Translations under genes and position numbers: made by a program | Notes under the pieces: generated by a model | Seen by the model: only the letters and a program-made list of their open reading frames with translations | What the model was told of the DNA's origin: nothing | The model's database searches: none | In this document: positions 930 through 20,689 of the stretch, one piece after another | How positions within the stretch are numbered: position 1 is the first letter of the stretch | Layout of the letters: every line of letters starts with the position of its first letter | Source of the DNA: a virus | Taxonomy: Duplodnaviria > Heunggongvirae > Uroviricota > Caudoviricetes | Virus record (IMG/VR): IMGVR_UViG_2579778622_000006 | Location: 1 to 20,803 of that record | DNA length: 20,803 nucleotides | Reading direction: 5' to 3' (one strand)

Positions 930-1265
930 TTATCGGGCCAGCGGCTGAACGGATACGCCGGAACCCGCAAAGGCGGCGCATTTTTTCGCATCGGTGTCGA
1001 CGCTGTCAGGCCAGTTAACGGCGGCAATATTGAATATCCCCGTTTTGTAACACTGTGCTGATTTCTGCTTTGACGTGTCCACGGGGTGCGAAGTCAGATA
1101 AACAGCTTTGCCAGATTCCTGACCATCCCACGCCTTAAACTCGCCATTGTCTGCCAGCATCAGCGGGGTAAATTCCTGAATAACGCCAGCATCAGCGGCA
1201 AAATGTACCAGCGTCGTGGATACCTGCTGGCTGCCTGCAAATAACTCAATATATGGAGCGTCCAT
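930..1265 (-). CDS. head decoration protein, lambda gpD family
   Basis: 111 aa. Shares TPLMLxD, AWDG, YKTG and AFAG motifs with recalled lambda gpD. GGGGGA RBS. Confidence 0.85.
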   Translation of the reverse strand: MDAPYIELFAGSQQVSTTLVHFAADAGVIQEFTPLMLADNGEFKAWDGQESGKAVYLTSHPVDTSKQKSAQCYKTGIFNIAAVNWPDSVDTDAKKCAAFAGSGVSVQPLAR

Positions 1266-1276: not shown

Positions 1277-2332
1277 TTAAGCAATTTTGACGGTAACAAA
1301 TTTGCGAATATCTGCCGGTACCGGCTGCGGTGCGCTGTGCGTCTGCACGTACTCAATCGCCGGATCGCCGTCCTCAATCCAGTTTTTCGGGTAGTACATG
1401 TTTTGCGTTGCGCCCGTTCTTACCGCTTCCTGATCCATAATCGCACCATAGGCCACCAGCCCTTTATTATTGGTGTTACCCAGGACCAGCAAATCAGGCT
1501 CAAGGAAATATTTTTCGGTGCCGTCGCTGTCAGTGTATTTGCCGGAATAGACGATAAGGGCCAGATCACCAAGATAGCCTTTAAAGCTCACCACTTCGCC
1601 CAGGTTTTTACAGGCCAGCTCGGCGGCGGATTCTGATCCACGGGAAAGATCGTACAGTTCACGGAATTTTTTAAAGCTGCGTAATGTGCGCCATACCTCA
1701 CCGCCCATAATCATGACGTTGGCGGGGCAACCTGCCTGATCAGCATAAAGCTCGATGTCATAGATTGGGTCGTGCATGTCTTTATCCTGCTGGGACCATT
1801 TTTTACCACTGGCCTGCTGTATGATGCAGTTTTCCGGTATTTTCCAGTCGATTTCATAGCGTTCTATGCCTTCGCCCTCAATGATGTTTTTTCCGGTCGT
1901 TACCGCATTCACCGCCAGCCATTCCACGCGCGCCTTAATGGCGTTTATCTGGCGGCGCATGTTGCCAGTAATCAGGCGCATACGGCGGTAAGTTGGATCG
2001 TTAAGCTGTGCCGGATCTTCTCCAGCCATGCGCATGATGGTCTTTGTTGGATCGATTTCGTGCTTTGGCTTCATGTAGCCAGGTTTAATCGTGCTGGTTT
2101 CGTACCCTTTATCGCGCTGGACCTGACTACCCACCATAGGCGAACAGAAAGCCGACATCGTAACCTCTTCAATGTCCAGGGTGTCCAGCATGATGTTTTG
2201 GGTGTTGAAGGTCGCCACGTTCGGGAAAAACAGCGTGGTAAACAGCGGACTAAATTTAAATTCCGAAATATCCCCGCGATTCAGGTACGCGAAAAGCTGG
2301 TTAGTTGTAAGTGCCGTTGCTTTGCCTGTCAT
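1277..2332 (-). CDS. major capsid protein, lambda gpE family
   Basis: 351 aa. Matches recalled lambda gpE in several blocks: EFKFSPLF, PGYMKPKHE, EDPAQLNDPTYRRMR, YPKNWIEDGDPA. GGAGG RBS. Confidence 0.9.
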   Translation of the reverse strand: MTGKATALTTNQLFAYLNRGDISEFKFSPLFTTLFFPNVATFNTQNIMLDTLDIEEVTMSAFCSPMVGSQVQRDKGYETSTIKPGYMKPKHEIDPTKTIMRMAGEDPAQLNDPTYRRMRLITGNMRRQINAIKARVEWLAVNAVTTGKNIIEGEGIERYEIDWKIPENCIIQQASGKKWSQQDKDMHDPIYDIELYADQAGCPANVMIMGGEVWRTLRSFKKFRELYDLSRGSESAAELACKNLGEVVSFKGYLGDLALIVYSGKYTDSDGTEKYFLEPDLLVLGNTNNKGLVAYGAIMDQEAVRTGATQNMYYPKNWIEDGDPAIEYVQTHSAPQPVPADIRKFVTVKIA

Positions 2333-2538
2333 TATTCACCTCCGTGAACCTGATTCATACCCAGCGCCGCACGTAAATAGGTACGCACCTGCCAGCCTGT
2401 TGACGGCTCAACCATCGCCAGCGGATCAAGTCCTGCCGCAATGCCTGCTTTTACATTCTGCTGGTGGCGTTCCTTGAGCGCCTCCACGATGTCGGGGCTT
2501 ATGTAGACCGTCACCCCGCCTTTTTTCTCTTCTGCCAT
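2332..2538 (-). CDS. hypothetical small protein, first gene of capsid operon
   Basis: 68-aa ORF with AGAGGA RBS; its stop overlaps the MCP start (TAATG), suggesting translational coupling. Confidence 0.5.
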   Translation of the reverse strand: MAEEKKGGVTVYISPDIVEALKERHQQNVKAGIAAGLDPLAMVEPSTGWQVRTYLRAALGMNQVHGGE

Positions 2539-2573
2539 AGTCAGAAATTCCTCTTTGACTTAAAAAATCATAA

Positions 2574-2623
2574 CTGGATGTTCATCCAGTCCTGATTATA
2601 ATCATGATTGCATTTTGCGCAAC
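2574..2623 (-). promoter_or_regulatory. candidate sigma70 promoter of capsid operon with a 16-bp palindromic operator
   Basis: On minus strand: -35 TTGCGC (2617-2622), 16-nt spacer, -10 TATAAT (2595-2600), then perfect palindrome CTGGATG-TT-CATCCAG (2574-2589) at the predicted start region. Confidence 0.35.
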
Positions 2624-2703
2624 AATATTGAGTTACGTTGCAAATTATGAAATGATTATCCCGATCATGTGTGCCAGTGCACCATAAAAAACCTCGTATA
2701 CAA

Positions 2704-2743
2704 AAGCCCGATAAGCCCCCTGTGACCTTATCGGGCTTTTTTT
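2704..2743 (+). terminator. strong intrinsic terminator hairpin on plus strand with no upstream plus-strand CDS
   Basis: 10-bp stem CCCGATAAG(G)/CTTATCGGG with an 11-nt loop, followed by TTTTTTT (2737-2743). Confidence 0.5.
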
Positions 2744-2748
2744 AGGCG

Positions 2749-2771
2749 TAAAAAAGCCGGATTGCTCCGGC
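2749..2771 (-). terminator. rho-independent terminator after the ProQ/FinO gene
   Basis: Hairpin GCCGGA-ttgc-TCCGGC (2756-2771) with an A-run at 2749-2755 on plus (U-tract on minus). Confidence 0.55.
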
Positions 2772-2796
2772 TTCGTCTCTTCATGTGGTCAGGGTT

Positions 2797-3381
2797 TTAT
2801 GCTTTCCGTACGCCCGAGGAACTGGCATTTTTCAGAATAATATTATGCCCTGCTGGTGGCTTACCGTTATGCTTATTTTCTGCCTTCATGTTTCTGCGCT
2901 CCTGCTGTTTTTTCTTCATCTCATCCAGTCGCTTCCCCGCGTTCAACTGGTGCTCCTGTGTCACCTCCCCGCACGGATGGCCTTTCAGGTCGTAACGCAC
3001 GCCACCAGCCATCAGGGAACGGTAATATCGCACTGAACTGACATAATACGCCAGCGTTGCGCGAAGCGCTCCCTGACCTAATGAAATACCTCTCGCAGTA
3101 ATATCCTCCATCAGGTCATCAAATATGCCAACCTTAAGCGGTCTGGGCGATTCCTGGCTGAAAAGTTCAGGCCAGAGCGCGGCAAGGCGTTCAACGCGTC
3201 TGATATTTTTTTTCCGGCTCTTTTCTGATTTGCGTTTTGCTGCCGTCTTCTGTTGTGTTTTCTGCTCGCGGCTCTGCTTTTGCGCTGGTGTGGTTTTATC
3301 CGGCTGTTCAGCCTCCTGCGTCTTTTTCTGCGGTGTGCCGTATATGCCTTTTGGTTTTCGGTTAATGGTCAGCTTTGTCAT
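2797..3381 (-). CDS. ProQ/FinO-domain RNA-binding protein with lysine-rich N-terminal tail
   Basis: 194 aa from the ATG at 3381 (GGGGGAG RBS). C-terminal PLKVGIFDDL...LRATLAYYVSSVRYYRSL...RYDLKGHPCGEV matches the recalled E. coli ProQ N-terminal FinO domain (PLKIGIFQDL...RVDLDGNPCGEL). Confidence 0.75.
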   Translation of the reverse strand: MTKLTINRKPKGIYGTPQKKTQEAEQPDKTTPAQKQSREQKTQQKTAAKRKSEKSRKKNIRRVERLAALWPELFSQESPRPLKVGIFDDLMEDITARGISLGQGALRATLAYYVSSVRYYRSLMAGGVRYDLKGHPCGEVTQEHQLNAGKRLDEMKKKQQERRNMKAENKHNGKPPAGHNIILKNASSSGVRKA

Positions 3382-3460
3382 GTTCTCCCCCTTTGTGCTG
3401 TTCCACCAGCGGCATCTGCTACCCCGTGTCGCTCCCGCTGGTGTCGTGTTTCCCCGCCTG

Positions 3461-3781
3461 TTAATAACCGTCATCATTTACGTTATCAGGGTAATCACGC
3501 CATATTTCATCAGTAAGCGACGGTAGCCCCATCTGTTGTATTGTCCTGTCTGCGGCCCTTCTGACTGCGTGAACATCATAACGGTTTTCAGGTATCGGGC
3601 GCTTTGCCTTCCTGATACATTCCCTTGCTCTCATTGCCGCAAGTTCTCTGTGCCTGTCTTCCTGAAGAGTAATCATCACATCCTGCCACCTTCTGGCAGC
3701 CCGTCGCCACAGTCCCCTGCTCTCGAGTTCTTCTGCTGTCGCGTCGCTTATTGTCCGGTTCTTCGGTGTGCTGTTGTTCAT
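3461..3781 (-). CDS. PerC-family-like transcriptional regulator
   Basis: 106-aa ORF containing AEELESRGLWRRAARRW, the motif I associate with PerC/Pch-type regulators. Assigned from memory of the motif only. Confidence 0.5.
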   Translation of the reverse strand: MNNSTPKNRTISDATAEELESRGLWRRAARRWQDVMITLQEDRHRELAAMRARECIRKAKRPIPENRYDVHAVRRAADRTIQQMGLPSLTDEIWRDYPDNVNDDGY

Positions 3782-3798: not shown

Positions 3799-4209
3799 TC
3801 AGAAGGGTATATCATCTCCGTAGGGGTCATCGCCTCCCGCTGGTGGCTCATTCCCCTGTGTGCCTGTGGTTTTGCGTCTGTTCCCGCCATGACGTGCCGC
3901 ACGCGCACTGATTACGCTGTCTGCGATAACCTGCCAGCCCTGCCGCGTTTCCCCGTTCTGTCCGGTCCACTGGCTCACCTGCATGTTACCCGCCACGCTC
4001 AGGAGTTCACCTTTGCGGTGCTTTGCCAGTGCTTCGGCCTGTCTGCCAAACGCCAGCACAGATAACCACATCGTCGCCGTTCCGTCATCTGCCTGGCTGC
4101 ACGGAAGGGGGACCGCCATACTCGCCATCGCCATTTGTGTCCCCTTGCTGGTGGTCTTTAACTGCGGGTCAGCCACCAGCCGCCCGTAAGCCGCTATCTG
4201 TGCTGTCAT
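3799..4209 (-). CDS. ssb: single-stranded DNA-binding protein (short SSB)
   Basis: 136 aa with OB-fold-like core (WLSVLAFGRQAE...KGELLSVAGNMQVSQWTGQNGETR), a Gly-rich linker and the canonical acidic C-terminal tip DDIPF. Confidence 0.85.
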   Translation of the reverse strand: MTAQIAAYGRLVADPQLKTTSKGTQMAMASMAVPLPCSQADDGTATMWLSVLAFGRQAEALAKHRKGELLSVAGNMQVSQWTGQNGETRQGWQVIADSVISARAARHGGNRRKTTGTQGNEPPAGGDDPYGDDIPF

Positions 4210-4458: not shown

Positions 4459-4670
4459 CCCCACCACTCCCCACTTTTGCTCCCCACTTTTTAAATTCCC
4501 CACTTGCTCCCCACCTCGTTTTTTGAGTGAATCTAATGCTTTGTTTTTCATTGCGTTTTTTACTCCCCACTTTTTTGGATATATACAGGTGGGAAAGTGG
4601 GGAATTATGTTTCAATTTTGTTAAATTCCCCACTCTCCCCACTTTTACTACCCACTTTTTACAGTGGGTA
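4459..4670. repeat. iteron array, putative satellite replication origin
   Basis: At least 9 copies of TCCCCAC(TTTT) in direct orientation (4459, 4468, 4481, 4496, 4508, 4563, 4626, 4635, 4649) plus inverted copies (GTGGGAAAGTGGGGAA at 4588-4604; CAGTGGGTA at 4662-4670), flanking an AT-rich core (4570-4585). Sits immediately 3' of the helicase gene. Confidence 0.6.
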
Positions 4671-6074
4671 AACATCATCCCCATCGACACAAATCACGCC
4701 GTCTTTTTCCAGCTTGGACAGCCAGCGCCGGAAGTGCTTCATCTCATACCCCAGCTTTTTCATATCGTCGCGGAGAAGGGCGATAGTGCATGGCTCTTTG
4801 TGTGCCGTCCGCGTTCTGATGCACTGCCATAGCGCGGTATGGTTTTCCGTCTTGTTGCCTGCCTCCTCGATGCGCTCCAGTTCAACGGGAGAGCGCGGCT
4901 TATCAACCACCACCAGCGACGTGATTAACTCCCCGTCAGCGTCGGTAAAAAGCTCCACCACGCGTAAATCGTAGGCGGCCTCTTTCAGTTCCTCCGCGTC
5001 CTTCATTTTGGTGCAGGATATAACCAGGGCTTTACTGTCTGCACCTTCTCGGCGAATACGGTATTCAGCGTCCAGAGATGCACGAAATGCACTGGAACCA
5101 CGCGCCCCCTTTGTTTCATCCTTGCCGGAATGGTGGACCACCAGCACCGTGGCCCCTGTGCGTCGTTTCAGGTCGTCACATCCACGGATAAACGCCCCCA
5201 TATCCCGCGCGTCATTTTCATCATTACCGCCAAAGCAACGCGCCAGCGTATCCAGAATAATCATGCGTACCGGTTTACCCGTTTCCCGTTCAACCTGGCG
5301 GGAAGCGATAACCATTTCATCAACATCAAGCGGGGCTGCCGGAAAAATCGGGCGGTTTACCAGGTACAGATTTTTCACCCGTTCATCATTAACGATTTCC
5401 CATGCCTTGATACGACGGGGGACACCAATGCCACCTTCACCGACAACATACATCACCGAACCATGCGCCACCCTGCGGCCTCCCCAGTGGCGCCCCGTGG
5501 CAACATGACACGCCCAGGAACACGCAAGGAATGATTTATAGGAACCGCTCGCACCGTATGTGCTGCACAATGAATTAGCCGGAATCACGCCCTTAACGAC
5601 ATAATCAAGCTGTGTGTCGTATCCTGCAGATCCAATGCTCATGGGTAGCGTGGTTTTTCGCTGGCTGTATTGCTCATCAGTAAGTATTTCCCCGCGCTCT
5701 GCCTGTTCGCGGATCCGTTGCAGGTAGTCGCGCCATTCCTCCCGCTTCTGGCTGTGCATTCCCTCGGGGTAATAACTCGCATCCCGTACACCTGCCGCCG
5801 CCAGTTTTTGCCCGATGGCATTAATATTTGATGGCTTGATGTGGCCTGCCTTGTACAGCCGGACACAATAGCGACCATCGTCGATAATTTTCAGGTCTGC
5901 CAGTTCGTCAAGCTGACTGTCTCCCAGCCATACTGGCGGGACGTTATCGCCAGCAAGTCGCCCGTCCTGTTCCTGCCATTGTTTTGCGTGCGCCCAGGCA
6001 TCACTACCTGCAAAAATAATGACTTCGGTCATTTTGTTGTGTGGCTGTTTTTTTAAGTTCGGTGCCAGTTTCAT
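4659..6074 (-). CDS. replication protein: RecA-fold (AAA_25/DnaB-like) helicase with C-terminal winged-helix
   Basis: 471 aa. Walker A GASGSYKS; Walker B-like ILDTLARCF; VLVVHHSGKD motif typical of RepA/DnaB-like ATPases; C-terminal basic wHTH-like segment. Confidence 0.8.
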   Translation of the reverse strand: MKLAPNLKKQPHNKMTEVIIFAGSDAWAHAKQWQEQDGRLAGDNVPPVWLGDSQLDELADLKIIDDGRYCVRLYKAGHIKPSNINAIGQKLAAAGVRDASYYPEGMHSQKREEWRDYLQRIREQAERGEILTDEQYSQRKTTLPMSIGSAGYDTQLDYVVKGVIPANSLCSTYGASGSYKSFLACSWACHVATGRHWGGRRVAHGSVMYVVGEGGIGVPRRIKAWEIVNDERVKNLYLVNRPIFPAAPLDVDEMVIASRQVERETGKPVRMIILDTLARCFGGNDENDARDMGAFIRGCDDLKRRTGATVLVVHHSGKDETKGARGSSAFRASLDAEYRIRREGADSKALVISCTKMKDAEELKEAAYDLRVVELFTDADGELITSLVVVDKPRSPVELERIEEAGNKTENHTALWQCIRTRTAHKEPCTIALLRDDMKKLGYEMKHFRRWLSKLEKDGVICVDGDDVYPL

Positions 6075-6370
6075 TTTTTATCCCTGAATCCGTTAATCAT
6101 GGTTTTCATCTTCTGAATATTGGCGCGTGCTTTCTCCCTGCTGGTTGGTTTACTGCGGGGCGCTGCCTGTACCAGAGAAAAATCACGCCGGAACTGATAA
6201 ACAGGCATCACGCAGTCATATTCGTAGCCATCACGGCGGTAAGTGATGCGCCGTTCTGCCACGCCTTTAATCGTTACCGTACCGCCGTAGTTATCACGGA
6301 AAATATCGCCGGGACGGATTTCAGGCCGAGCGGGGCCGCTGGCAGTAAAGCCAGAATTTTTCTTTTTCAT
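6071..6370 (-). CDS. hypothetical protein
   Basis: 99-aa ORF with AGGAAA RBS; its stop overlaps the helicase start (ATGA). Confidence 0.5.
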   Translation of the reverse strand: MKKKNSGFTASGPARPEIRPGDIFRDNYGGTVTIKGVAERRITYRRDGYEYDCVMPVYQFRRDFSLVQAAPRSKPTSREKARANIQKMKTMINGFRDKK

Positions 6371-8331: not shown

Positions 8332-8360
8332 GGCCACCGTGACAGGTGGCCTTTGTTTTG
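8332..8360 (+). terminator. rho-independent terminator after the RHH gene
   Basis: GGCCACC-gtgaca-GGTGGCC followed by TTTGTTTTG. Confidence 0.6.
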
Positions 8361-8454
8361 CCTGTTATCCGGCAATTGTGGAGCTTCGTCACACGGTTGA
8401 TATAATTCCCCTGCTCAGATTCATTTTTTGCGCGGCAGGTAAATTGTTCAGAAA

Positions 8455-8482
8455 GGCGGCTCCTTATCGGGGCCGCTTTTTT
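8455..8482. terminator. second hairpin with T-tract between the convergent RHH and alpA genes
   Basis: GCGGC-tccttatcgg-GCCGC followed by TTTTTT (8477-8482) on plus; possibly bidirectional. Confidence 0.4.
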
Positions 8483-8508: not shown

Positions 8509-8715
8509 TTAAGCAGCCGTTCCGCGTGCTTCCTGTTCGCGTTCTTTCTGCCAGGCCAACACATCATCCTCATACCATCCGCGACGGCGTAAACCAACGC
8601 GAAAACCCTGCGGAAATTCTCCGGCGTTGATCATGCTTTGCAGCGTGCTGTCTGCCTTGATGTGGATAATTTTTTTTACTTCCTGGCGAAAGATAATTTT
8701 TCTGATTGCTTCCAT
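8509..8715 (-). CDS. alpA: AlpA-family phage transcriptional regulator / excisionase-like HTH protein
   Basis: 68 aa; pattern IIFRQEVKK...GEFPQGFRVGLRRRGWYEDDVLAW matches the AlpA/Vis HTH_17 architecture. Confidence 0.8.
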   Translation of the reverse strand: MEAIRKIIFRQEVKKIIHIKADSTLQSMINAGEFPQGFRVGLRRRGWYEDDVLAWQKEREQEARGTAA

Positions 8716-8882: not shown

Positions 8883-9134
8883 TTACCGCCATTTTTTGGG
8901 CCTGCCTCCGATCTTCATAGATGCCGGACGTACGACCTTATCAATACTTACCGCCAGATTTCTGGAAGCGCCACGGGATACCAGAAAATCTACTACCTGT
9001 TTTTTTGATGGGGCCGTCGTCCTGTCCTCCGGATCGTAGGTTGACCAAAATTCATGCTGAACCATCAGGGCCAGTTGCAGCCCGTCGCAATTGCATCTGA
9101 TATTTTTTTGCATCTTAACGGTTTCATGTTTCAC
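8883..9134 (-). CDS. hypothetical protein between int and alpA
   Basis: 83-aa ORF (GTG at 9134 or ATG at 9113) with a terminator directly downstream. Start uncertain. Confidence 0.45.
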   Translation of the reverse strand: MKHETVKMQKNIRCNCDGLQLALMVQHEFWSTYDPEDRTTAPSKKQVVDFLVSRGASRNLAVSIDKVVRPASMKIGGRPKKWR

Positions 9135-9211
9135 GGCCTTGTCGTTAAATTTGATGCAATTATACGACGGTTTTACATGGTTTTCGTAGTTTTTACTGGT
9201 TTTCTGTACAG

Positions 9212-10453
9212 CTACACGGCTCGGATACCCCTTTTACCACTGGCGAGGGTTACGCCCGTCGCCGCAGCCTCGACAAATTCGCCCCACCAGCGCATCAGCA
9301 CGATGCGTTTTTCTATGTAGTTGCTCCGGTTGTATGCCCGTCTAACTTCGTTGGTGTCGACGTGGGCAAGTGCCGCCTCTATTACGTCCGGCTCGAATCC
9401 TTCCTCGTTCGCTGCTGTGCTGAATATGGCGCGTAATCCATGAGACACCAGCACGCCAGCGAATCCCATACGCCGCAATGCTGCGTTAGCTGTCTGGCTG
9501 TTCATCGGCTGCTGTGGGTCTTTCAGACTTGGGAAAACGTAATTGCGGTGGTGGCTGATTGGTTTCATGGCCTCCAGCACCGCCATAGCCTGACCGGAAA
9601 GCGGGATAACGTGATCCCTGCGCATCTTCATGCGTCCGGCAGGTATCGTCCATTGCTTCGCGTCCAGGTTGATTTCATCCCACCGCGTTGATGACGCTTC
9701 GGCGGGACGGGTTACGGTCAGTAACTGCCATTCAATCAGTAATCTGGTCTGCCGTTCTGTTGCCGATACTGATAAAGCCTGCATAAGCTCGGGCAGCTGT
9801 TCGGGGCGGATTGTTGGCATATGTTTTTTTACAGGTGAGGGAAACGCCTTACGCACATTCATAGCCGGATTGGCATCAATCAGCCCACTGTTGGCGGCGT
9901 AATCCATTACCTCATTAACGCGCTGTAAAACCCGCTTGAGTGTTTCCAGGTTGCCGCGCTCCTTGATGGGGGTAAGCACTTCAACGAACCTTCGGGCGGT
10001 GAGGGTATCTATTGGCGTGTTGCCGATGAACGGGAATACATATTTATCCAGCGAACGCCAGATGTCTTTAATCGTGTTGGGGGCCAGATTCTGGCTGATT
10101 TTCACCTGGTACCATGCCGCCGCCACATTTTCGAACGTGTTCCCTTGTCTTCGGGCCTCTGTCTCTCTTTTTTGCCTCTCGTGGTCCTGCGGGTCAGTTC
10201 CGGCACTGATTAACGTCCTGTACTCGCTACGGCGTTTTCTGGCATCAGCCAGGGAAACATCTTCAAGCGATCCAAAACTCAGCAATATTCTTTTTTTGTC
10301 CGATGGTCGGTAGTAGGAAAATCTCCAGAGTTTTGATCCAGACGGTTTGACCAGGAGAAAAAGCCCTCCGCCGTCCTGCAGGGTGTACTCCTTTTGCGCT
10401 GGTCTGGCTGCTTTGATCTGCACTGTGGTTAATGGGTGTGTTTTTCTCGCCAT
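9212..10453 (-). CDS. int: tyrosine recombinase, P4-type integrase
   Basis: N-terminal arm-binding-like domain (LTTVQIKAARPAQKEYTLQDGGGLFLLVKPSGSKLWRFSYY), catalytic C-terminus with R...HGLR and terminal RAYNRSNY (Tyr). Adjacent to the tRNA 3' remnant. ATG at 10453 preferred over the GTG at 10471. Confidence 0.9.
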   Translation of the reverse strand: MARKTHPLTTVQIKAARPAQKEYTLQDGGGLFLLVKPSGSKLWRFSYYRPSDKKRILLSFGSLEDVSLADARKRRSEYRTLISAGTDPQDHERQKRETEARRQGNTFENVAAAWYQVKISQNLAPNTIKDIWRSLDKYVFPFIGNTPIDTLTARRFVEVLTPIKERGNLETLKRVLQRVNEVMDYAANSGLIDANPAMNVRKAFPSPVKKHMPTIRPEQLPELMQALSVSATERQTRLLIEWQLLTVTRPAEASSTRWDEINLDAKQWTIPAGRMKMRRDHVIPLSGQAMAVLEAMKPISHHRNYVFPSLKDPQQPMNSQTANAALRRMGFAGVLVSHGLRAIFSTAANEEGFEPDVIEAALAHVDTNEVRRAYNRSNYIEKRIVLMRWWGEFVEAAATGVTLASGKRGIRAV

Positions 10454-10485
10454 ATGTCTATGATTCCACACGAAAAAACAGGGTT

Positions 10486-11857: not shown

Positions 11858-13036
11858 TTAGCTGGCTTTAATTTCTCCATGGGGAACGACAACCCAATCT
11901 ATATGATTTTGCGTGTAGATCTTGGTTGACTTCGCATCGCTGTGCGCCATTCGTCCTTGTGGATCGATACCCTGCTGATCGAATAGATGCGCTGCTAGTG
12001 CTCGAATTTCGTGAAAGGTTGGTCTTTCATCCATTGGTAGATTGTCGCATAAACCTAGTTTGTCCCGTGTAGCTGAAAACGACCTACTCAAATAGTCCGG
12101 TGCAACTTGAGTAGGATGTGAAACCTCTTTGCTGCGTTTAACTTGGCGTTCTGGGATCCTGTGAACGACAAACGGACTGGCCACATTATCTCGGCTATCG
12201 TCAATTATCCGTTTCAACTCTTCACCAATTGGTATTGCAACGTGTGACGCCTCTTTTTGTTGCACTTTTTGCCTGTGGATGTAAAGCGTCCCATATATGC
12301 CATTTTGTGGTTGTTCGAACCAGACACATCCACATATACCGTCTTTAGGTTCGCGAATTGAGTAACGGATTCGCGATACTTCGAGTCGTGCATGTGTAGT
12401 CTGCAATGCTAGGTCCATTGCTGTTCTTAACCATGGTGCAGCGGCCTGCCTGATAGCTATAAAATGCTCGAGTGACAGGCGCCGTCTTTTCTTCTCATCA
12501 GTCCTACGCATTTTTTTTCTGATGGCCGGGTTATCCAGCATTAGTGATTCATCGACCGCATAAGAGAACAACTTTTTAAGAAAGCTGACCTTTCTGTTCT
12601 GCACATTTGCGGATGCGCTGGCATGATATTTGTTGATGTAGGTATTAACGTGTTCAAGTTCGATATCGCATGCCGGAACATTTACGAAAAACGCTTTTAC
12701 GCGTAGAGCGTCATTTTTCCAGTCATCTAAGGTGCTCTGGGAAGGACGTTCGTCTTCGATAATTCGGGCCATTATGTGATCAACATGTTCAGCAAATGGT
12801 TTTGCTTCTCCGATAACACCGCCAGATTCTCTAATAAGATTATCTACTGATGGAGATAATTCTGGTCGCATCCTCAGGTTGTACTCTCTGGCGATTGCAA
12901 TGGCTATTGCCCTATCCTTACCTATATTTTTCTTCTTTCCGGTAATAAGTGTGAATTTATAAACACCTCGATCTTTATCAAAAATCAGATAATCAGGAAG
13001 ATGTCTGTATTCTTTTTTACGTGGCCTTGCCGCCAT
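11858..13036 (-). CDS. int: tyrosine integrase, lambda Int family
   Basis: Aligns to recalled lambda Int in several blocks (LSLEHFIAIRQAA..WLRTAMDLA vs LTADEYLKIYQAA..WLRLAMELA; RPTFHEIRALAAHLF vs PPTFHELRSLSARLY). ATG at 13036 with GAGGGGTGA RBS; the ORF-track start at 13042 is a GTG. Confidence 0.9.
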   Translation of the reverse strand: MAARPRKKEYRHLPDYLIFDKDRGVYKFTLITGKKKNIGKDRAIAIAIAREYNLRMRPELSPSVDNLIRESGGVIGEAKPFAEHVDHIMARIIEDERPSQSTLDDWKNDALRVKAFFVNVPACDIELEHVNTYINKYHASASANVQNRKVSFLKKLFSYAVDESLMLDNPAIRKKMRRTDEKKRRRLSLEHFIAIRQAAAPWLRTAMDLALQTTHARLEVSRIRYSIREPKDGICGCVWFEQPQNGIYGTLYIHRQKVQQKEASHVAIPIGEELKRIIDDSRDNVASPFVVHRIPERQVKRSKEVSHPTQVAPDYLSRSFSATRDKLGLCDNLPMDERPTFHEIRALAAHLFDQQGIDPQGRMAHSDAKSTKIYTQNHIDWVVVPHGEIKAS

Positions 13037-13038
13037 GG

Positions 13039-13248
13039 TCACCCCTCATTTATTAACTTGCGAACAGCTTGACTAACCATTGAGTCGACTCCCCATTTTT
13101 CTGTTTCGCAGACAAAAACAGAACCGTCCACGATACGCCCCATGAGCAGACCGTTCTCGACCCAGCGTTTTATCGTTCGGTTGTCAGGAATTGAGCCATT
13201 AGAGAATTCACGGCGTCCCCATTGGCTCGCTTTCATTAGTTTTGCCAT
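13039..13248 (-). CDS. xis: excisionase (Xis-like)
   Basis: 69 aa from the ATG at 13248 (GGAGAAA RBS). Pattern ASQWGRREF...RTIKRWVENGLL...DGSVFV resembles lambda Xis (LQEWNARQ...ETVRRWVRE). Lies immediately upstream of int. Confidence 0.7.
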   Translation of the reverse strand: MAKLMKASQWGRREFSNGSIPDNRTIKRWVENGLLMGRIVDGSVFVCETEKWGVDSMVSQAVRKLINEG

Positions 13249-13309
13249 GGCTGTTTCTCCACTTAACCCGCTGCACACGGGCAGTAATATCAAATTTCAG
13301 TCCTGATAA

Positions 13310-13525
13310 TTAATTTTGTTCTATGGTTGCTACCTGTTTAATTGGCCTGATGCTGTCCAGGAGCAGTCGGCGGCGCGTATTTTCTGCAAAGTGGCGGCGT
13401 CCGGTTTCTTTGTGGTAAAACTCGTTTTTTCCGACGACCCACATCCGCTTTGTCTGGTGCAGTTTTTTTACCTGCGGACCGTTTCGGGTAATAACAATTC
13501 CTGTATGAGTTTTTATCACGCTCAT
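13310..13525 (-). CDS. hypothetical protein
   Basis: 71-aa ORF with GGAGAA RBS; start overlaps the upstream stop (ATGA). Confidence 0.5.
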   Translation of the reverse strand: MSVIKTHTGIVITRNGPQVKKLHQTKRMWVVGKNEFYHKETGRRHFAENTRRRLLLDSIRPIKQVATIEQN

Positions 13526-13884
13526 TTCTTATTCTCCGGTGCTTTCGGCATTACTGCCCAGTGAGTGATATTGACGTTTTCAAGGTCCCCGACCTGAAAT
13601 GTCCACTGCCATTCTCCGGTTTCTTTTTGCCCCCATGTGTACCAGAGAGAACGCCAGCCAATCAGCCAGCCTTCTCCGTTAGCATCAAATAACAGAACAC
13701 TTTCATTTGCTGGTGGCAGTTCAGCTGACACTGGTATTACTTTGTTTTCCAGTGCTGCACATTTAGCTTCAAGCGCATCTAATTTACGCACCAGGTATTC
13801 AGCATCCGTTTCATTCACTTTCAGGTCTCGTGGTACACATCTCCCGCGAAGAAACCCTTCCATTTCGAAAACATTCATGCGCAT
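13522..13884 (-). CDS. hypothetical prophage protein (Trp-rich C-terminal domain)
   Basis: 120-aa ORF, GGAG RBS 8 nt upstream of the ATG; coiled-coil N-terminus and Trp-rich C-terminus. Confidence 0.5.
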   Translation of the reverse strand: MRMNVFEMEGFLRGRCVPRDLKVNETDAEYLVRKLDALEAKCAALENKVIPVSAELPPANESVLLFDANGEGWLIGWRSLWYTWGQKETGEWQWTFQVGDLENVNITHWAVMPKAPENKK

Positions 13885-14411
13885 TTGCGTAACTCCGATA
13901 ACTCGTGAAAGCGTTCCATAAACATCCCGTAGGCATGGCCCGGTGGCATTGGAATCACGTTGAACATCTCTGTTGCCGGGATGCCTTCCAGTACAGGCCA
14001 GAAAGAGCCATCATCAAGCCCGAGATCGCGGCGTTCGGTTGCCAGCATAATGAGATCGGCATATTTCACTGGCGTGCTCATAACAGGAGGTAACCCGTAT
14101 TTCTCACGGATTACGGCGTCTATTTTTTCTTCCATCCGTTTATAGTCAGGAAGAAGGCGTTTCAGTGGAGCGGGGATGTCCTGGCAATACGCTTCTGTTG
14201 CATCATGCATTAACGCTTCAAAAGCAAATTCCTGCGGTACCAGCTGGCTGCAAAGAACCGCATGTTGGGCGACGCTGTAGAAGTGTGAAAGATGTCCTGC
14301 AAAGCGACAGATATTTGAAAGGGAAACCGCGATATCGTTAATATCGATGTTGTCTTTATTTATCCGGTCATAATAAAAATGCTTCCCGGAAAAAGTTTTA
14401 ATAAATGACAT
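13875..14411 (-). CDS. HD-domain metal-dependent phosphohydrolase
   Basis: 178 aa from the ATG at 14411 (GGAG RBS); H...HD signature (VAQHAV ... ALMHDATEAY). Confidence 0.7.
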   Translation of the reverse strand: MSFIKTFSGKHFYYDRINKDNIDINDIAVSLSNICRFAGHLSHFYSVAQHAVLCSQLVPQEFAFEALMHDATEAYCQDIPAPLKRLLPDYKRMEEKIDAVIREKYGLPPVMSTPVKYADLIMLATERRDLGLDDGSFWPVLEGIPATEMFNVIPMPPGHAYGMFMERFHELSELRKCA

Positions 14412-15082
14412 TTCGTTCTCCACGTTATATGCGCTGCACCGCGTTGAATTTTGGTTGCAAGAATCCCTCGCCATCCGGCGATTATTGAGTCAATTACGTT
14501 TCCATAAATGCCCCCGCAGGGGCGGTTAGTTTCTCCACAAAACAGAGAAGAACACCTACGGTAGTCACTGCCGGATGGATTGGGTTATGAGCCCATCGTC
14601 CGGTGATGCTCTTCTCTGTTTTGTAAAAAGGGCGGTGCCAGAAAGGACTAAGGAAAAAACTGGTACCGCCAAAGCAATGGCAGTTGTGGTGGGGTTGTCA
14701 CTCAGGCGTATGGTCAACCTGACAACCCGGTGTCCTCAACGGGGAAAGAGTAACCCCGCCATACTTACCGCCGCGCCATTTCGCGGATTACCACAACGCA
14801 GAGAGCACTTAGCCAGTTACGGCACCACACTTTGTCGCGGTTCCATAAATGCCCTCATCGTTGCACCCTGGTCTCTTCCCAGGCGTCAAACCGAATCGCC
14901 ACGCTGGTTAGGCGTCTTATCAGCATCCTCATTGACTTGCACATTCCGGCTACCTGGTTTGTTTGCCCGAGCAAGGAGTGGATTGTCCCCTTTAACGTCT
15001 CCAGACCGCTAACGACGCATGTGCCATACGCCGTGTTACAACCAAATTTTGTTTGAATCTTGCCTGCTTCATGTTTCTTTTG

Positions 15083-15109
15083 GGTACATTATGTATCTCA
15101 AAGGTACAT
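15083..15109. promoter_or_regulatory. candidate left operator (O_L) dyads
   Basis: GGTACAT-t-ATGTATC (15083-15097) overlapping ATGTATC-tcaaa-GGTACAT (15091-15109); same half-site family as the dyads flanking the cI start. Confidence 0.45.
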
Positions 15110-15153
15110 TGTCAAGTATAAAAAAACCTGCCGAAGCAGGTTCATAACATTGA

Positions 15154-15828
15154 TTAGGCTTTGATTTTGTATCTTCTTGGTTTTCCTGAGAAAATTACTG
15201 TACCAATTATAGAGCAATTACCGTTGATCTTAATGTAAGGCTCAGGCCAGTTTGGGTTTAATGCTTTGAGATAACGCTGTGTTCCATCTTCTATCAATCG
15301 CTTGAAGGTGGTTTCGCCTGTATCGTGCATCAACGCAATAACGTCGTCACCGTGGCAAGCAGGGACTTCAGGATCAACAAAAATCATGTCTCCCGGGCGG
15401 TACTCATCAATCATTGAATCACCAATCACCCGCAAGATATAAGTCATTTCGCCACAGGGTACAGGGCAGGGATACGTTTCCGCTGTGCTCAAATCAACCT
15501 CAGAATAACCAACTTCTTTCCATGCTCCGGCCTGTACCCATGATATGACAGGAACTAACGTAATTTGTTTGTTAGTGATTGAAACATCAGGTTTTTTTGT
15601 GATGTTTGTTGTCTGGTGTTCTTGATCAAGCCATCCGACAGGCAGGTCGAAGCATTTTTCGATGTGCCGTGCCATGCTGTCACCGATATTTTTAGTGGCG
15701 CCATCCCCCATAAACCTGCTGGTTTGGGTTGGCTCGCGATCAATCATGGTGGCAAAGGAAGAATTCCCGCCAACACCATCTCTCAGTTTTCTGGCGTTAG
15801 ACCGCCGGATGTCATGGACTGTTTTCAT
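15154..15828 (-). CDS. cI: CI-like prophage repressor with S24 (LexA-type) autopeptidase domain
   Basis: 224 aa. C-terminal S24 signature with catalytic Ser in VIGDSM and Lys in TFKRL; N-terminal HTH-type region; divergent from the cro-like gene across palindromic operators; no strong SD. Confidence 0.85.
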   Translation of the reverse strand: MKTVHDIRRSNARKLRDGVGGNSSFATMIDREPTQTSRFMGDGATKNIGDSMARHIEKCFDLPVGWLDQEHQTTNITKKPDVSITNKQITLVPVISWVQAGAWKEVGYSEVDLSTAETYPCPVPCGEMTYILRVIGDSMIDEYRPGDMIFVDPEVPACHGDDVIALMHDTGETTFKRLIEDGTQRYLKALNPNWPEPYIKINGNCSIIGTVIFSGKPRRYKIKA

Positions 15829-15844
15829 AACGAAATTAAAACCT

Positions 15845-15915
15845 TTGTACCGTTAAGGTACAAGTATCTTGAAGGTTCATTTCAATCATGTAATATGTAT
15901 ACCGGGGGTACATAT
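15845..15915. promoter_or_regulatory. right operator region (O_R) with two palindromes between cI and cro-like starts
   Basis: TTGTACC-gttaa-GGTACAA (15845-15863) and ATATGTATACC-ggg-GGTACATAT (15893-15915). Confidence 0.5.
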
Positions 15916-15918
15916 TGT

Positions 15919-16119
15919 ATGAAAGCGTATTGGAACTCTTTAACCAAAGAACAGCAGGGCGATTTGGCCGGAAAAGTTGGTTCAACACCTGGCTACTTAC
16001 GGCTGGTTTTCAATGGCTATAAAAAAGCCAGCTTTGTACTGGCTAAAAAACTTGAGCAATGCACATCAGGAGCAATTACGAAATCTGACTTAAGACCGGA
16101 TATCTATCCGAAAGATTAG
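15919..16119 (+). CDS. Cro-like HTH regulator (Cro/YdaS-like)
   Basis: 66 aa from the ATG at 15919, immediately after the O_R dyad; HTH-like segment LAGKVGSTPGYLRLVFNGYKKAS; divergent from the repressor. Confidence 0.6.
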   Translation: MKAYWNSLTKEQQGDLAGKVGSTPGYLRLVFNGYKKASFVLAKKLEQCTSGAITKSDLRPDIYPKD

Positions 16120-16150
16120 CAGAAGACCTTCAATTTTTAACCACAGAACG

Positions 16151-16714
16151 ATGAGGCTAACCGTGGGTAAGCATCACTGGAAAGTAAAAAAACAGCCTGA
16201 GTGGTATGTGAAAGCGGTCAGAAAAACTATCGCGGCGTTGCCGGGTGGTTATGCTGAGGCTGCTGACTGGCTGGATGTAACAGAGAACGCATTATTTAAC
16301 CGCCTTCGTGCAGATGGCGATCAGATTTTCCCGCTGGGATGGGCAATGATTTTGCAACGTGCTGGTGGCACTCACTTCATTGCTGACGCTGTGGCGCAGT
16401 CTGCAAATGGCGTCTTTGTGTCTCTTCCTGATATCGAGGATGTGGACAACGCCGATATTAACCAGCGCTTGCTGGAAGTCATTGAACAGATTGGCAGTTA
16501 TTCCAAACAGATTCGTTCGGCAATCGAAGACGGTGTGGTGGAACCGCATGAGAAGACAGCAATTAACGACGAGCTGTACCTGTCAATTTCGAAGCTGCAG
16601 GAGCATGCAGCACTGGTCTACAAAATTTTTTGCGTTTCAGAAAGTAATGACGCCCGCGAGTGTGCAGCTCCGGGCGCCGTGGCGTGTCGTGACTGTGGAG
16701 AAACTAACGCATGA
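16151..16714 (+). CDS. hypothetical early protein (position of a CII-like regulator)
   Basis: 187-aa ORF. The ATG at 16151 lacks an SD; the GTG at 16163 has a GAGG RBS. Stop overlaps the next ORF start (ATGA). Confidence 0.5.
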
Positions 16715-17049
16715 ACAGTTTAACAACACACTACCGTCGCTCGCAACTGATTGCGCTTCCTGTACCGGGTGGAAAAGCGAAGGTGGAATATTGCTATGCA
16801 GTGAATGTACCAGGTGACAGGGAAATTGTAACCCACAGCTTTGCAGAGTGGGCTGTGGGTGATTTCAACCGGCAGAAGGAGACAGTCCTTTGCGACAAGT
16901 TAACCGCTGGTTCAAAGATCACTACGGAGTGCCCGTCAGAGTCATTCGTTGGGAGCCGGAAACACAACGGGTTATCTACCTCCGCGAAGGTTATGAGCAT
17001 GAATGCTTCAGTCCGCTCGAACAGTTTCGTCGTAAATTCAGGGAAATAG
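16711..17049 (+). CDS. hypothetical protein; 3' half doubtful (possible frameshift or overlapping small gene)
   Basis: ORF start coupled to the upstream stop; the first 57 aa are protein-like, the rest is Ser-rich, while an alternative frame (16890-17069) is protein-like. Confidence 0.3.
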
Positions 17050-17058
17050 AGGTCGGTC

Positions 17059-18000: not shown

Positions 18001-18002
18001 TC

Positions 18003-18491
18003 ATGAGTCTTTTGAATGAAGTTCAGAAATTCATTGAAGCCCATCCGGGGTGTACTTCCGGAGACATTGCGGATGCTTTTGCAGGTTACTCACGGCAGCG
18101 CGTTCTGCAGTCAGCAAGCAAGTTACGTCAGAGTGGGCGTGTAGCTCACCGTTGTGAAGGAGATACACGCAGACATTTCCCACGCCTGACTGAGAGAGCG
18201 CAGAAGCCGGAACCACAACCAGTTCGTGAAACCAGACCTGTGCGCAATTTCTATGTCGGCACTAACGATCCCCGGGTGATTTTGTGCCTGACCCGCCAGG
18301 CGGAAGAACTGGAGTCCAGGGGCTTATACCGTCGTGCTGCAACGGTGTGGATGGCGGCATTCCGTGAAAGCCACTCCCAGCCAGAACGAAACAATTTTCT
18401 GGCGCGTCGTGAGCGGTGCTTACGGAAAAGCAGCAAGCGCGCTGCATCGGGTGAAGAGTGGTATCTGTCAGGGAATTACGTGGGGGCTTAA
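18003..18491 (+). CDS. winged-helix plus PerC-like domain protein
   Basis: ATG at 18003 with AGGGGG RBS. N-terminal wHTH-like region; C-terminal AEELESRGLYRRAATVW, the same motif as the satellite PerC-like gene at 3461-3781. Confidence 0.5.
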   Translation: MSLLNEVQKFIEAHPGCTSGDIADAFAGYSRQRVLQSASKLRQSGRVAHRCEGDTRRHFPRLTERAQKPEPQPVRETRPVRNFYVGTNDPRVILCLTRQAEELESRGLYRRAATVWMAAFRESHSQPERNNFLARRERCLRKSSKRAASGEEWYLSGNYVGA

Positions 18492-19853: not shown

Positions 19854-19872
19854 TCAAGAGGAGAAACGAAGT

Positions 19873-20682: not shown

Positions 20683-20689
20683 GGTGACC

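Follow-up and report, generated by a model that had tools for sequence, protein, structure and literature searches.

In the FinO/FinP/traJ system of F-like plasmids, FinO serves as the chaperone for FinP over traJ, and in the terminators of FinP and RepX the closing pair sits above a purine-purine mismatch and the tail is unpaired (PMC12001967). FopA, a plasmid FinO-domain protein, is the chaperone of an antisense RNA by which the replication initiator is controlled (PMC9977716). Proteins with this domain bind U-tailed terminator hairpins; the signature of ProQ ligands is a G-C pair at the base of the stem, an A-rich 5' flank and at least four U residues (PMC7367173). The essential RNA-binding residues of ProQ, R58, Y70 and R80, lie on its concave face (PMC10168233). 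FinO-domain genes in satellites have so far been noted only as unexplained cargo (PMC13612085, PMC13230959). Regulation of a satellite late operon is represented by SaPI operon I, the packaging operon of staphylococcal PICIs, for which LexA control is cited in PMC6092414 (its reference 7).

The window analyzed here, a stretch of 20,803 nucleotides, contains an E. coli phage satellite in which a FinO/ProQ-type gene lies beside an opposite-strand terminator (Table 1). Using criteria for Gram-negative PICIs taken from PMC6092414 and PMC10111431, we assigned the satellite to the EcCICFT073 type by its gene content and order: int, an alpA-like regulator, primase/helicase, unidirectional genes, small size and phage late-gene homologues. 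The replication/accessory operon is arranged in the order primase/helicase, ssb, perC, proQ. In Sakai, a cf-PICI late module occupies the corresponding site. Domain identity, structures, orientation, conservation and lack of co-inheritance were computed. The interpretation to which we incline, with some confidence, is that three separable PICI units lie side by side: the ProQ gene as cargo, a LexA-controlled capsid operon, and a hairpin (hairpin 1) that ends a divergent RNA of ~80 nt. On this view modular recombination juxtaposed the three in an EcCICFT073-type PICI.

Table 1. Features of the region between the replication and capsid modules, in window coordinates
Feature	Position	Strand	Basis
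FinO/ProQ-domain protein gene, 194 aa	2797..3381	-	Pfam, PDB sequence matches, AlphaFold model and Foldseek
Layout of the FinO/ProQ-domain protein: disordered basic N-terminus 1-44; long N-terminal helix 45-69; FinO core ~80-140; long C-terminal helix 142-171			
Hairpin 2, intrinsic terminator at the end of the replication/accessory operon, to which the ProQ gene belongs	2750..2771	-	Discriminant and recurrence across loci
Hairpin 1, predicted intrinsic terminator of the capsid module	2702..2743	+	Folding, discriminant and six lineages
Predicted non-coding RNA, ~80 nt	2663..2743	+	Folding, comparable lineages
Predicted plus-strand promoter	2628..2656	+	Top plus-strand PWM hit; lineage and variant conservation
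Predicted capsid-operon promoter	2594..2622	-	PWM 10.5; variant and lineage conservation
LexA-operator-like site AACTGGATGTTCATCCAGTC, spanning the predicted capsid start	2572..2591	.	PWM, variants, lineages
Capsid-operon leader and first gene	2332..2588 (leader ~2588-2539)	-	Pfam, phrog matches
Major capsid E-like gene	1277-2332	-	Pfam PF03864, 2.4e-50
Decoration D-like gene	930-1265	-	Pfam PF02924, 1.7e-17

The FinO/ProQ-domain gene and its terminator

The gene encodes a FinO-domain protein, as the first-pass annotation had proposed; RNA binding by the protein is predicted. Residues 63-163 match PF04352 with an E-value of 1.3e-26 and 93.2 bits, the curated cut-off being 27 bits. Sequence matches in the PDB include the N-terminal domain of ProQ (4e-18), FinO (2e-15), RocC (2e-12) and NMB1681. 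In the AlphaFold model the core has a pLDDT of 90-96, and the top matches of a Foldseek comparison with the PDB are FinO (1DVO, E 7.7e-8) and RocC (3.6e-7), with a probability of 1.00. R107, Y119 and R129 align with R58, Y70 and R80 of ProQ. Across 37 PICI homologues, Y119 and R129 are conserved in at least 90%, and R107 is the consensus residue at below 90%. The positions of ProQ K54 and R62 are occupied by Q and A.

A search of the phage collection with the protein gave four weak matches, in Sodalis and Shewanella phages. The PICI-borne FinO-domain proteins form a sizeable family, and their genes are found just after the replication genes in all eight architectures examined (after ssb in seven of them). 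In PICIs with several other late modules, the gene preceding a related ProQ gene is ssb or that of the primase (six architectures), and homologues are also present in PICIs without the capsid E/D module. In the eight architectures examined, no RNA element co-occurring with the FinO-domain genes was seen. The gene would be cargo at the end of the replication/accessory operon, which would stop at hairpin 2.

Hairpin 2, which the first-pass annotation did not mention, has the stem GCCGGA/TCCGGC at 2756-2771 and a U6 tract encoded at 2755-2750. With the terminator discriminant formula of d'Aubenton-Carafa et al., its minus- and plus-strand values are +23.2 and -17.9. It bears the ProQ-ligand signature given above. 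At loci L002-L007 hairpin 2 stands behind the last gene, whichever this is (ProQ, a 74-aa ORF or SSB). It is also found in PICIs with other late modules: in L092 and Sakai Sp7 without hairpin 1, and in L090 and L091, where a 99-100% identical ProQ allele and hairpin 2 are followed by a different late module, again without hairpin 1. The cf-PICI L111, which lacks hairpin 1, has a same-strand analogue of hairpin 2 with a different stem. Hairpin 2 travels with the replication/accessory operon. We considered whether hairpin 1 is the ProQ gene's own terminator and rejected this, since the gene already ends at hairpin 2 and since other ProQ loci have no hairpin 1.

Hairpin 1 is inherited with a different partner. 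It is present in 658 of 5426 complete E. coli genomes, and ProQ adjoins it in only five of the 658. Carriers of the module include strains LH50-c, O103:H2 12009 and O157:H7 E32511. The megablast matches in these genomes end at window position 2742 or 2772, with only five extending into ProQ. Among 75 IMG/VR capsid loci, ProQ is present in one, PerC in 47 and SSB in 72. Hairpin 1 travels with the capsid module, independently of the ProQ gene, and there is no genetic tie between the RNA predicted to end at this hairpin and the satellite's FinO-domain protein.

The capsid operon and the opposing terminator

The predicted capsid promoter comprises a -35 element TTGCGC (2622-2617), a 16-bp spacer and a -10 element TATAAT (2600-2595), with a predicted start at ~2588. 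Its -10 element is invariant in 47-48 of 48 variants, and the equivalent promoter is the top hit in lineages L101, L102 and L104. The -10 element sits inside the palindrome GATTATAATC (2594-2603), giving divergent predicted start sites ~21 bp apart; bidirectional promoters are defined by divergent starts 7-25 bp apart that have a common symmetric -10. Symmetric -10 elements commonly yield divergent, often non-coding transcripts (PMC10268837). Salmonella L101 and L104 no longer have this symmetry. Within the leader, the Shine-Dalgarno sequence GAGG is at 2553-2550, and the first gene (2332-2538, minus strand) encodes 68 residues that match phrog_3255, a family whose function is unassigned.

Directly downstream of the capsid -10 element, the leader contains a perfect 18-bp palindrome at 2573-2590, absent from the first-pass annotation. 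It has the form CTG-N10-CAG, the E. coli type of LexA box. Scored with a PWM built from known boxes (20 known boxes score 13.4-26.9 bits), the site reaches 18.6 bits, the best in the window, a score attained in one of 200 shuffles. LexA-like boxes are found at the equivalent place in Salmonella L101, and a consensus box is found there in Lelliottia L106; no such box is present in L102-L105. We also considered the palindrome as an attenuator or terminator hairpin. This was rejected: the discriminant is negative on both strands, and variants that change CTGG to CTGT break the hairpin and bring the box closer to the LexA consensus. The leader hairpin is best read as a predicted LexA operator. The capsid operon would have its own sigma-70 promoter with the start covered by this operator, and therefore would probably be off until the SOS response. 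To our knowledge direct LexA control has not been reported for EcCICFT073-type PICIs, and our literature search found no report of it.

Upstream of the capsid promoter, hairpin 1 faces the other way. It consists of an A4 run (2702-2705), a 10-bp stem GCCCGATAAG/CTTATCGGGC (2706-2715/2727-2736), a pyrimidine-rich loop of 11 nt and a T7 run (2737-2743). The simple terminator scanner overlooked it for the sole reason that the loop exceeds the scanner's limit of 8 nt. The hairpin folds with a dG of -19.8 kcal/mol (z -4.7), and none of 200 shuffles is as stable. Six diverged capsid-module lineages have six different stems, with a T6-T9 run always on the plus strand, opposite to the PICI genes. Their plus-strand discriminants are +13.9 (the window), +20.0, +39.2, +37.0, +33.5 and +22.3, and those on the gene strand are +8.0 (the window; median -1.0 across 48 E. 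coli variants), -11.3, -6.5, -8.5, -56.6 and -32.3. The T-run is 6-7 nt long in all 48 E. coli variants. Stem changes that give G-U pairs on the plus strand give A-C on the other (an L036 variant; L107). Because the stem is invariant within E. coli, there is no true covariation among these variants, and RNAalifold on 41-44 of them gave almost no covariation term. TTGCA inverted repeats in the E. coli variants look like DNA sites.

No credible plus-strand ORF lies upstream of hairpin 1; the only ORFs are antisense ones inside the capsid genes and a tiny one at 2652-2687 (MIIPIMCASAP), which we rejected as a small peptide gene because its frame and stop are not conserved. The strong orphan plus-strand terminator described in the first-pass annotation is real, and the hairpin looks functional in this role, with predicted 3' ends. 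The closing pair is G-C with four A-U pairs beneath it, and by the criteria of PMC12001967 this context follows the pattern of chromosomal-ProQ ligands, not the FinP/RepX type. With these ligand features, host ProQ, or here its satellite paralogue, could bind an RNA ending at the hairpin. As part of the capsid module, hairpin 1 would stop transcription running against all PICI genes.

A predicted divergent RNA and alternative explanations

The transcripts, LexA binding and protein-RNA binding discussed here are inferred. The most likely source of this opposing transcription is a predicted promoter of the extended -10 type, conserved and lying ~75 bp upstream of the capsid start, which would give an RNA of ~80 nt (~2663-2743). 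The promoter has a -35 element TTGAGT (2628-2633), a 17-bp spacer, a TG at 2648-2649 and a -10 element AATGAT (2651-2656); its PWM score of 9.2 bits is only at about the 90th percentile of the window background. The same arrangement of -35, 17 bp and TGn-10 is the top hit in four lineages, including Salmonella L101, Edwardsiella L102 and E. coli L104. The two hexamers and the TG show little or no variation in 48 variants, and conservation collapses right past 2656. No positionally equivalent promoter is evident in L107 and L109. The candidate promoter lies in A/T-rich DNA between -40 and -68 relative to the capsid promoter, and this block could instead owe its conservation to an UP element or an activator site.

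The predicted RNA begins with a small 5' stem-loop and ends with hairpin 1; the linker between them is A-rich and contains an invariant CCUC. The RNA folds with -25.2 kcal/mol (z -5.3), the terminator contributing most; the 5' part is not significantly structured (z -1.8 to +0.3). In other lineages the predicted RNAs are 67-93 nt long and have the same layout. Rfam searches of 2540-2800 at gathering and permissive thresholds gave no match, no P4 CI/C4-like RNA was found by Rfam anywhere in the satellite, and the intergenic DNA matched none of 50,697 phage records. Compared with 29 translation-start regions in the window, the RNA has no convincing target. Literature searches on PICI and LexA, EcCICFT073 and transcripts, and PICI and sRNA or ProQ returned no earlier description of the region. 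From the comparative data, a short plus-strand RNA ending at hairpin 1 is plausible. The predicted plus-strand starts are ~2663 and ~2609, and the capsid transcript is predicted to run downward from ~2588; the RNAs would therefore be divergent and non-overlapping, and the predicted RNA is most likely divergent from the capsid leader rather than antisense to it. Such a divergent RNA would be found in hundreds of PICIs without a FinO-domain gene.

Hairpin 1 may instead be an insulator only, making no discrete regulatory RNA and blocking backward transcription into the replication/accessory operon and the origin. The transcription would come from the symmetric late promoter or from antisense starts in the capsid genes, and the hairpin might act as a weak gene-strand backup of hairpin 2. 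We regard this as possible, if doubtful. Hairpins 2 and 1 are back-to-back, oppositely oriented terminators, and symmetric -10 elements are a common source of divergent RNAs (PMC10268837). The body between promoter and terminator is the region's least conserved part, its lack of significant structure and the want of a standout target fit the same explanation, and L107 and L109 keep the terminator without a recognizable conserved promoter. Against a mere insulator stand the extended -10 promoter, which four lineages conserve at the same distance, and the invariant CCUC in the linker together with the pyrimidine-rich loop; moreover, cf-PICI late modules, which are also co-directional, lack an opposite-facing terminator of this kind.

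A broader proposal, which we consider improbable, is that between their replication and capsid modules EcCICFT073-type satellites bear an undescribed small RNA gene that runs against all satellite genes, from an extended -10 promoter of its own to a terminator of the ProQ class. Its RNA would pair with read-through transcripts of the upstream operon or, by way of its pyrimidine-rich loop, with the capsid ribosome-binding site and, together with LexA, silence the capsid genes until induction; the FinO-domain proteins encoded beside ssb in many PICIs would be the satellites' own chaperones and would take over this and further terminator-bearing RNAs of satellite or helper from host ProQ.

Quite improbable is a modified FinOP-like arrangement in which the plus-strand RNA acts in trans: its terminator loop would kiss the loop holding the leader Shine-Dalgarno sequence and block translation, assisted by host ProQ or the satellite paralogue. 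The loop CCUCCUCUUGACG of Salmonella L101 forms 12 bp, with one bulge, with the sequence CGUCAAAGAGGGG at the ribosome-binding site (energy -19.3 kcal/mol; p 0.02 relative to shuffles), and two E. coli variants give p 0.01-0.03. The minus-strand fold shows a small GUCA/UGAC hairpin with the leader Shine-Dalgarno sequence in its loop or at the loop's edge, and the terminator flanks are of the ProQ type (PMC7367173). Yet the complementarity is not significant in the window (p 0.16), L004 (0.29), L102 (0.76) or L104 (0.58), and CCUC/GAGG matches are common by chance. Moreover, close E. coli relatives differ freely in the loop but share a constant ribosome-binding site; therefore the two do not co-evolve.

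Least tenable is the original antisense model, in which a plus-strand RNA starting at 2560-2610 and ending at hairpin 1 would be antisense to the capsid leader, with the adjacent FinO-domain protein as its dedicated chaperone: it can draw on a genuine FinO-domain protein that keeps residues matching the three essential ones of ProQ (PMC10168233), a good plus-strand terminator of the U-tailed kind such proteins bind (PMC7367173) and a candidate start at ~2609 from the palindromic -10, but no candidate plus-strand promoter starts within the leader (2663, 2609 and at best 2589, the leader being 2588-2539), the -10 symmetry is lost in Salmonella and L104, protein and hairpin are inherited independently (5/658, 1/75), PICIs are found that combine a ProQ homologue with an unrelated late module and have no hairpin of this kind, and the hairpin flanks are not of the FinP type (PMC12001967). 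Given the independent inheritance and the predicted lack of overlap between the RNAs, a FinO/FinP-style antisense switch is not supported, and a specific circuit of this type at the satellite locus is unlikely. What stands of the first-pass annotation is the domain, the orphan terminator and a plausible short plus-strand RNA; the antisense circuit over the capsid leader is unsupported.

The analysis leads to three predictions: an orphan plus-strand RNA of ~80 nt from a module that ~12% of the complete E. coli genomes carry, a capsid operon under direct LexA control in a Gram-negative PICI, and ProQ-ligand-type terminators at both module boundaries. The satellite family concerned is widely distributed. 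If the predictions are true, an RNA layer would be added to satellite-helper regulation; if they are false, the region amounts to the usual promoters and terminators that separate one exchangeable module from the next.

Comparison with known systems

Like EcCICFT073, the model Gram-negative PICI, the satellite has int, an alpA-like gene, primase/helicase and ssb, followed by capsid E-like and decoration D-like genes, all co-directional (PMC6092414; PMC10111431). The copy described here differs in bearing PerC and ProQ cargo. It lacks terS, which is present in O157 and O103 relatives. LexA control of its capsid operon would parallel that of SaPI operon I as cited in PMC6092414 (reference 7), a satellite packaging or capsid operon with its own promoter and a LexA operator, the latter predicted here; the host in this case is Gram-negative, and the box is of the E. 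coli CTG-N10-CAG type.

With chromosomal ProQ of E. coli and Salmonella, the satellite protein shares its closest core sequence, that of the N-terminal domain (4e-18), and the residues equivalent to R58, Y70 and R80; hairpins 1 and 2 show the ligand signature of that protein (PMC7367173). Unlike ProQ, it has neither the linker nor the Tudor-like C-terminal domain, does not conserve K54 and R62, and is encoded on a satellite, after ssb. FopA/Inc of plasmid pCol1B9 offers another FinO-domain protein of a mobile element alongside replication functions, although in this satellite no RNA antisense to the replication genes was detected.

The likeness to FinO/FinP/traJ lies in a FinO-domain protein on a mobile element, whose fold best matches FinO 1DVO including both long helices, and in a short, terminator-ended RNA, predicted here, near the start of a late-function operon. 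FinP, however, is fully complementary to the traJ leader, inside which it is transcribed, whereas the predicted RNA of the satellite and the capsid leader do not overlap. In place of the purine-purine mismatch below the FinP and RepX stems, hairpin 1 has A-U pairs (PMC12001967). FinO and FinP travel together, while the satellite protein and its neighboring hairpin are inherited independently. The predicted RNA also resembles lambda OOP RNA and the divergent non-coding transcripts of bacterial promoter regions, in that a short RNA would run against the operon flow and end at its own terminator. Lambda OOP overlaps the 3' end of cII; for the satellite RNA, overlap would be restricted to transcripts that read through from the upstream operon.

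Satellite layout and the FinO-domain protein

Positions 1 to ~10,500 of the window make up a phage satellite whose genes all lie on the minus strand, and an annotated locus in E. coli LH50-c is essentially identical to it. Its genes are arranged as in EcCICFT073, the model phage-inducible chromosomal island (PICI) of Gram-negative bacteria, where c1499 and c1500 are the homologues of the capsid and decoration genes (PMC6092414; PMC10111431). A lambdoid prophage directly adjoins the integrase end and could be a helper in tandem with the satellite. There is no tRNA gene in the window; the otherwise identical LH50-c locus sits at tRNA-Pro.

Genes and non-coding features of the satellite and the adjoining prophage
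Feature	Element	Positions	Strand
Integrase	satellite	9212-10471	-
LexA-box-like site	satellite	9194-9213	
alpA-like excisionase/regulator	satellite	8509-8715	-
alpA-side terminator-like hairpins	satellite	8450-8482; 8332-8351	+
Icd-like region	satellite		-
DUF4222 gene	satellite	6071-6370	-
RepA-type helicase	satellite	4659-6074	-
SSB	satellite	3799-4209	-
PerC-family regulator	satellite	3461-3781	-
perC-proQ inverted repeat	satellite	3404-3443	-
FinO/ProQ-domain protein	satellite	2797-3381	-
Hairpin 2	satellite	2756-2771	-
Hairpin 1	satellite	2702-2743	+
TTGCA(T/A) half-sites	satellite	2604-2650 (2609-2614; inverted, 2615-2620; 2638-2643)	
Leader palindrome	satellite	2572-2591	
68-aa protein, late operon	satellite	2332-2538	-
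Lambda E-like major capsid protein, late operon	satellite	1277-2332	-
D-like decoration protein, late operon	satellite	930-1265	-
137-aa protein, late operon	satellite	504-917	-
Lambdoid prophage (11.8-20.8 kb)	prophage	11858-20803	
Lambda-type integrase	prophage	11858-13042	
S24 CI-like repressor	prophage	15154-15828	
O-like replication protein	prophage	17059-18000	

That the satellite encodes a FinO-domain protein is confirmed by a PF04352 match (E 1.3e-26). Its sequence matches among solved structures are the ProQ N-terminal domain, FinO and RocC. In a structure model based on 37 homologues the core is confident and superposes best on FinO (1DVO) and RocC; as in FinO, a long helix is predicted to flank the core on each side. 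Homologues of 160-215 aa occur in E. coli, Shigella, Salmonella and Citrobacter, just after the PICI replication genes in all eight architectures examined; the preceding gene is ssb in seven and a primase gene in the other (L112). The neighboring late regions vary: E/D capsid, HK97-type capsid-forming PICI (cf-PICI), or none. Salmonella PICIs L097-L099 (4001-5115) carry two FinO-domain genes, of 213 and 152 aa, in tandem; ssb and a DUF2158 gene precede them. The family is almost missing from phage genomes. FinO-domain genes in satellites have already been listed with no function given (PMC13612085; PMC13230959), and this PICI-borne family is still of interest. The perC-proQ gap contains, directly before the start codon of ProQ, a 9-bp inverted repeat, CACCAGCGG...CCGCTGGTG. 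In the intercistronic RNA it folds into a stable stem-loop (-21 kcal/mol, z -2.9) that could be a processing or translational-control element.

Two hairpins and their owners

The first-pass annotation had also described an orphan plus-strand terminator, and we find it as stated. Hairpin 1 consists of A4, a 10-bp stem (2706-2715/2727-2736) and T7, folds with -19.8 kcal/mol (z -4.7), and has no credible plus-strand coding sequence upstream. A second hairpin, with a U6 tract on the minus strand, had been overlooked. With a d'Aubenton-Carafa-type discriminant, the values for hairpin 2 are +23.2 (minus strand) and -17.9 (plus strand); this hairpin terminates the ProQ gene and the operon to which it belongs. 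For hairpin 1 the plus-strand value is +13.9; its minus-strand value is +8.0 in the window, with a median of -1.0 over 48 E. coli variants.

Within E. coli the stem of hairpin 1 is nearly invariant while the loop varies, so no covariation is seen there. We therefore widened the comparison to distant capsid modules (capsid identity 54-69%), those of Salmonella, Edwardsiella and Serratia and of two more E. coli lineages. In six lineages a hairpin lies 150-330 nt upstream of the capsid operon, its stem sequence different in each, and in all six a long T-run (T6-T9) is opposite to the PICI gene strand. The discriminants are +13.9 to +39.2 on the plus strand and -56.6 to +8.0 on the gene strand. 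Three changes (an L036 variant, L107, L109) give G-U on the plus strand and would give A-C on the other. This six-lineage comparison is the strongest evidence that plus-strand transcription would pass this spot and stop at hairpin 1. Elsewhere, the alpA-like gene has two strong terminator-like hairpins of the plus strand a short way downstream, likewise oriented against the satellite genes. P4-like CI/seqA immunity RNAs have been suggested for PICI Bro regions (PMC10111431); an Rfam search gave no confirmation of them here.

Comparative data tell the two hairpins apart. A megablast search with window 2300-3500 had matches in 658 of 5426 complete E. coli genomes, almost all of them ending at 2742 or 2772 and only 5 extending into ProQ. 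Upstream DNA is long enough in 75 IMG/VR capsid-module loci, of which 72 encode SSB, 47 PerC and 1 a FinO-domain protein. Hairpin 1 occurs in 84 of a set of 100 loci, all 84 with the E/D capsid module. The gene preceding hairpin 2 is ProQ in the window, a 74-aa ORF in O157/O103 and ssb in others. Hairpin 2 is found without hairpin 1, after accessory genes and with other late modules, in L092, Sakai Sp7 and L090/L091; in the last two a ProQ allele 99-100% identical is followed by hairpin 2 and then a different module. cf-PICI L111 has only a same-strand analogue with a different stem. Sp7 (L100; E. coli O157:H7, 1594711-1610171), annotated 'untypable prophage', is a capsid-forming PICI with an HK97-type late module. 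The O157 E32511 satellite has the same ssb-pchE(PerC)-74-aa module and hairpin 2 but not this late module, which shows that late modules are exchanged at the hairpin boundary. The ProQ gene and hairpin 1 are unlinked, and an RNA ending at hairpin 1 would go with the capsid module. Some elements, including many E. coli relatives, have ~165 nt extra between the hairpins. This insert (e.g. L005 (PA45B) 3441-3620, and L007) includes a GC-rich structured stretch, ATGATGATGATG repeats and a small GCGC hairpin followed by a T-run; a further small gene or RNA may lie here.

A predicted plus-strand RNA and the antisense model

A simple sigma-70 matrix gives two plus-strand promoter candidates: candidate 1, TTGAGT-17-TGn-AATGAT (predicted start ~2663), and candidate 2, the palindromic GATTATAATC (~2609). 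The capsid promoter, TTGCGC-16-TATAAT, is predicted to start at ~2588, heading to 2539. Neither candidate RNA would overlap this leader, contrary to the proposal that the RNA is antisense to it. Equivalents of candidate 1, equally far from the capsid ATG, are the top plus-strand match in Salmonella (TTGACT/AATGAT), Edwardsiella (TTGTTC/AATAAT) and a 64%-identity E. coli lineage (TTGACT/AATCAT). The hexamers and TG of candidate 1 vary hardly, if at all, over 48 E. coli variants, and conservation falls away directly after its -10. The RNAs predicted from candidate 1 and its equivalents measure 62-93 nt; a small stem-loop at the 5' end is followed by an A-rich linker and then by the terminator. 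A symmetric -10 is a known origin of divergent transcription (PMC10268837); the symmetry of candidate 2 is gone in Salmonella and in E. coli L104. The plus-strand promoters score only at the ~90th percentile of background, and the candidate 1 block could alternatively serve the capsid promoter, as an UP element or as an activator site. Three TTGCA(T/A) half-sites upstream of the capsid promoter resemble an array for protein binding; their conservation extends from E. coli to Edwardsiella. It is plausible that hairpin 1 ends a short plus-strand RNA, and the chances are about even that there is a discrete RNA of ~80 nt divergent from the capsid leader. This testable candidate small RNA is one point of remaining interest.

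ProQ ligands are terminators that have G-C basal pairs, four or more U, and an A-rich 5' flank that pairs with the tail (PMC7367173; PMC12001967); the FinO ligands FinP and RepX have instead a purine-purine mismatch beneath the stem (PMC7367173; PMC12001967). Hairpin 1 in every lineage, and also hairpin 2, resembles the ligands of chromosomal ProQ, so binding of the hairpin 1 RNA by host ProQ or the satellite paralogue is plausible. The pattern is generic and makes no specific tie between the satellite protein and this RNA. The loop of hairpin 1 is pyrimidine-rich. In Salmonella L101 the loop (CCUCCUCUUGACG, upstream of 2277) is complementary over 12 bp, apart from one bulge, to the ribosome-binding site of the gene that opens the capsid operon (p 0.02); the complementarity is not significant in the window (p 0.16) or in two other lineages, an intriguing but inconsistent signal. 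Both halves of the original observation stand and a short plus-strand RNA is plausible, but a FinO/FinP-like antisense circuit over the capsid leader is very unlikely: the RNA would be divergent from the leader and unlinked to the FinO-domain gene.

The palindrome in the capsid leader

The first-pass annotation overlooked a perfect 18-bp palindrome inside the capsid "leader". On a LexA matrix made from 20 known E. coli boxes, AACTGGATGTTCATCCAGTC scores 18.6 bits, the top site in the window, a score equalled in 1 of 200 shuffles of the window. It resembles a ruvAB-type CTGG-N8-CCAG box. As a terminator the palindrome fails on either strand by the discriminant. In four loci CTGT replaces CTGG, breaking the hairpin and improving the LexA box. 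The CTGG-N8-CCAG box is kept at the equivalent place in Salmonella L101, and a consensus CTGT-N8-ACAG box precedes the capsid operon in Lelliottia L106. Based on the score, the non-terminator result, the CTGT variants and these two boxes, we read the site as a putative LexA operator. It is not universal, since L102-L105 have no LexA-like box.

Second best in the window, at 16.6 bits, is another LexA-box-like site, TACTGGTTTTCTGTACAGCT. It overlaps the stop codon of the integrase gene and lies ~80 nt upstream of the first post-int gene (8883-9134), with a TATAAT ~30 nt beyond. It suggests a possible direct SOS input into the satellite early operon.

LexA control of the late (capsid) operon in this Gram-negative PICI is probable, judged from sequence, and is a further point of remaining interest. 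A parallel would be SaPI operon I, for which LexA control has been reported (as cited in PMC6092414).
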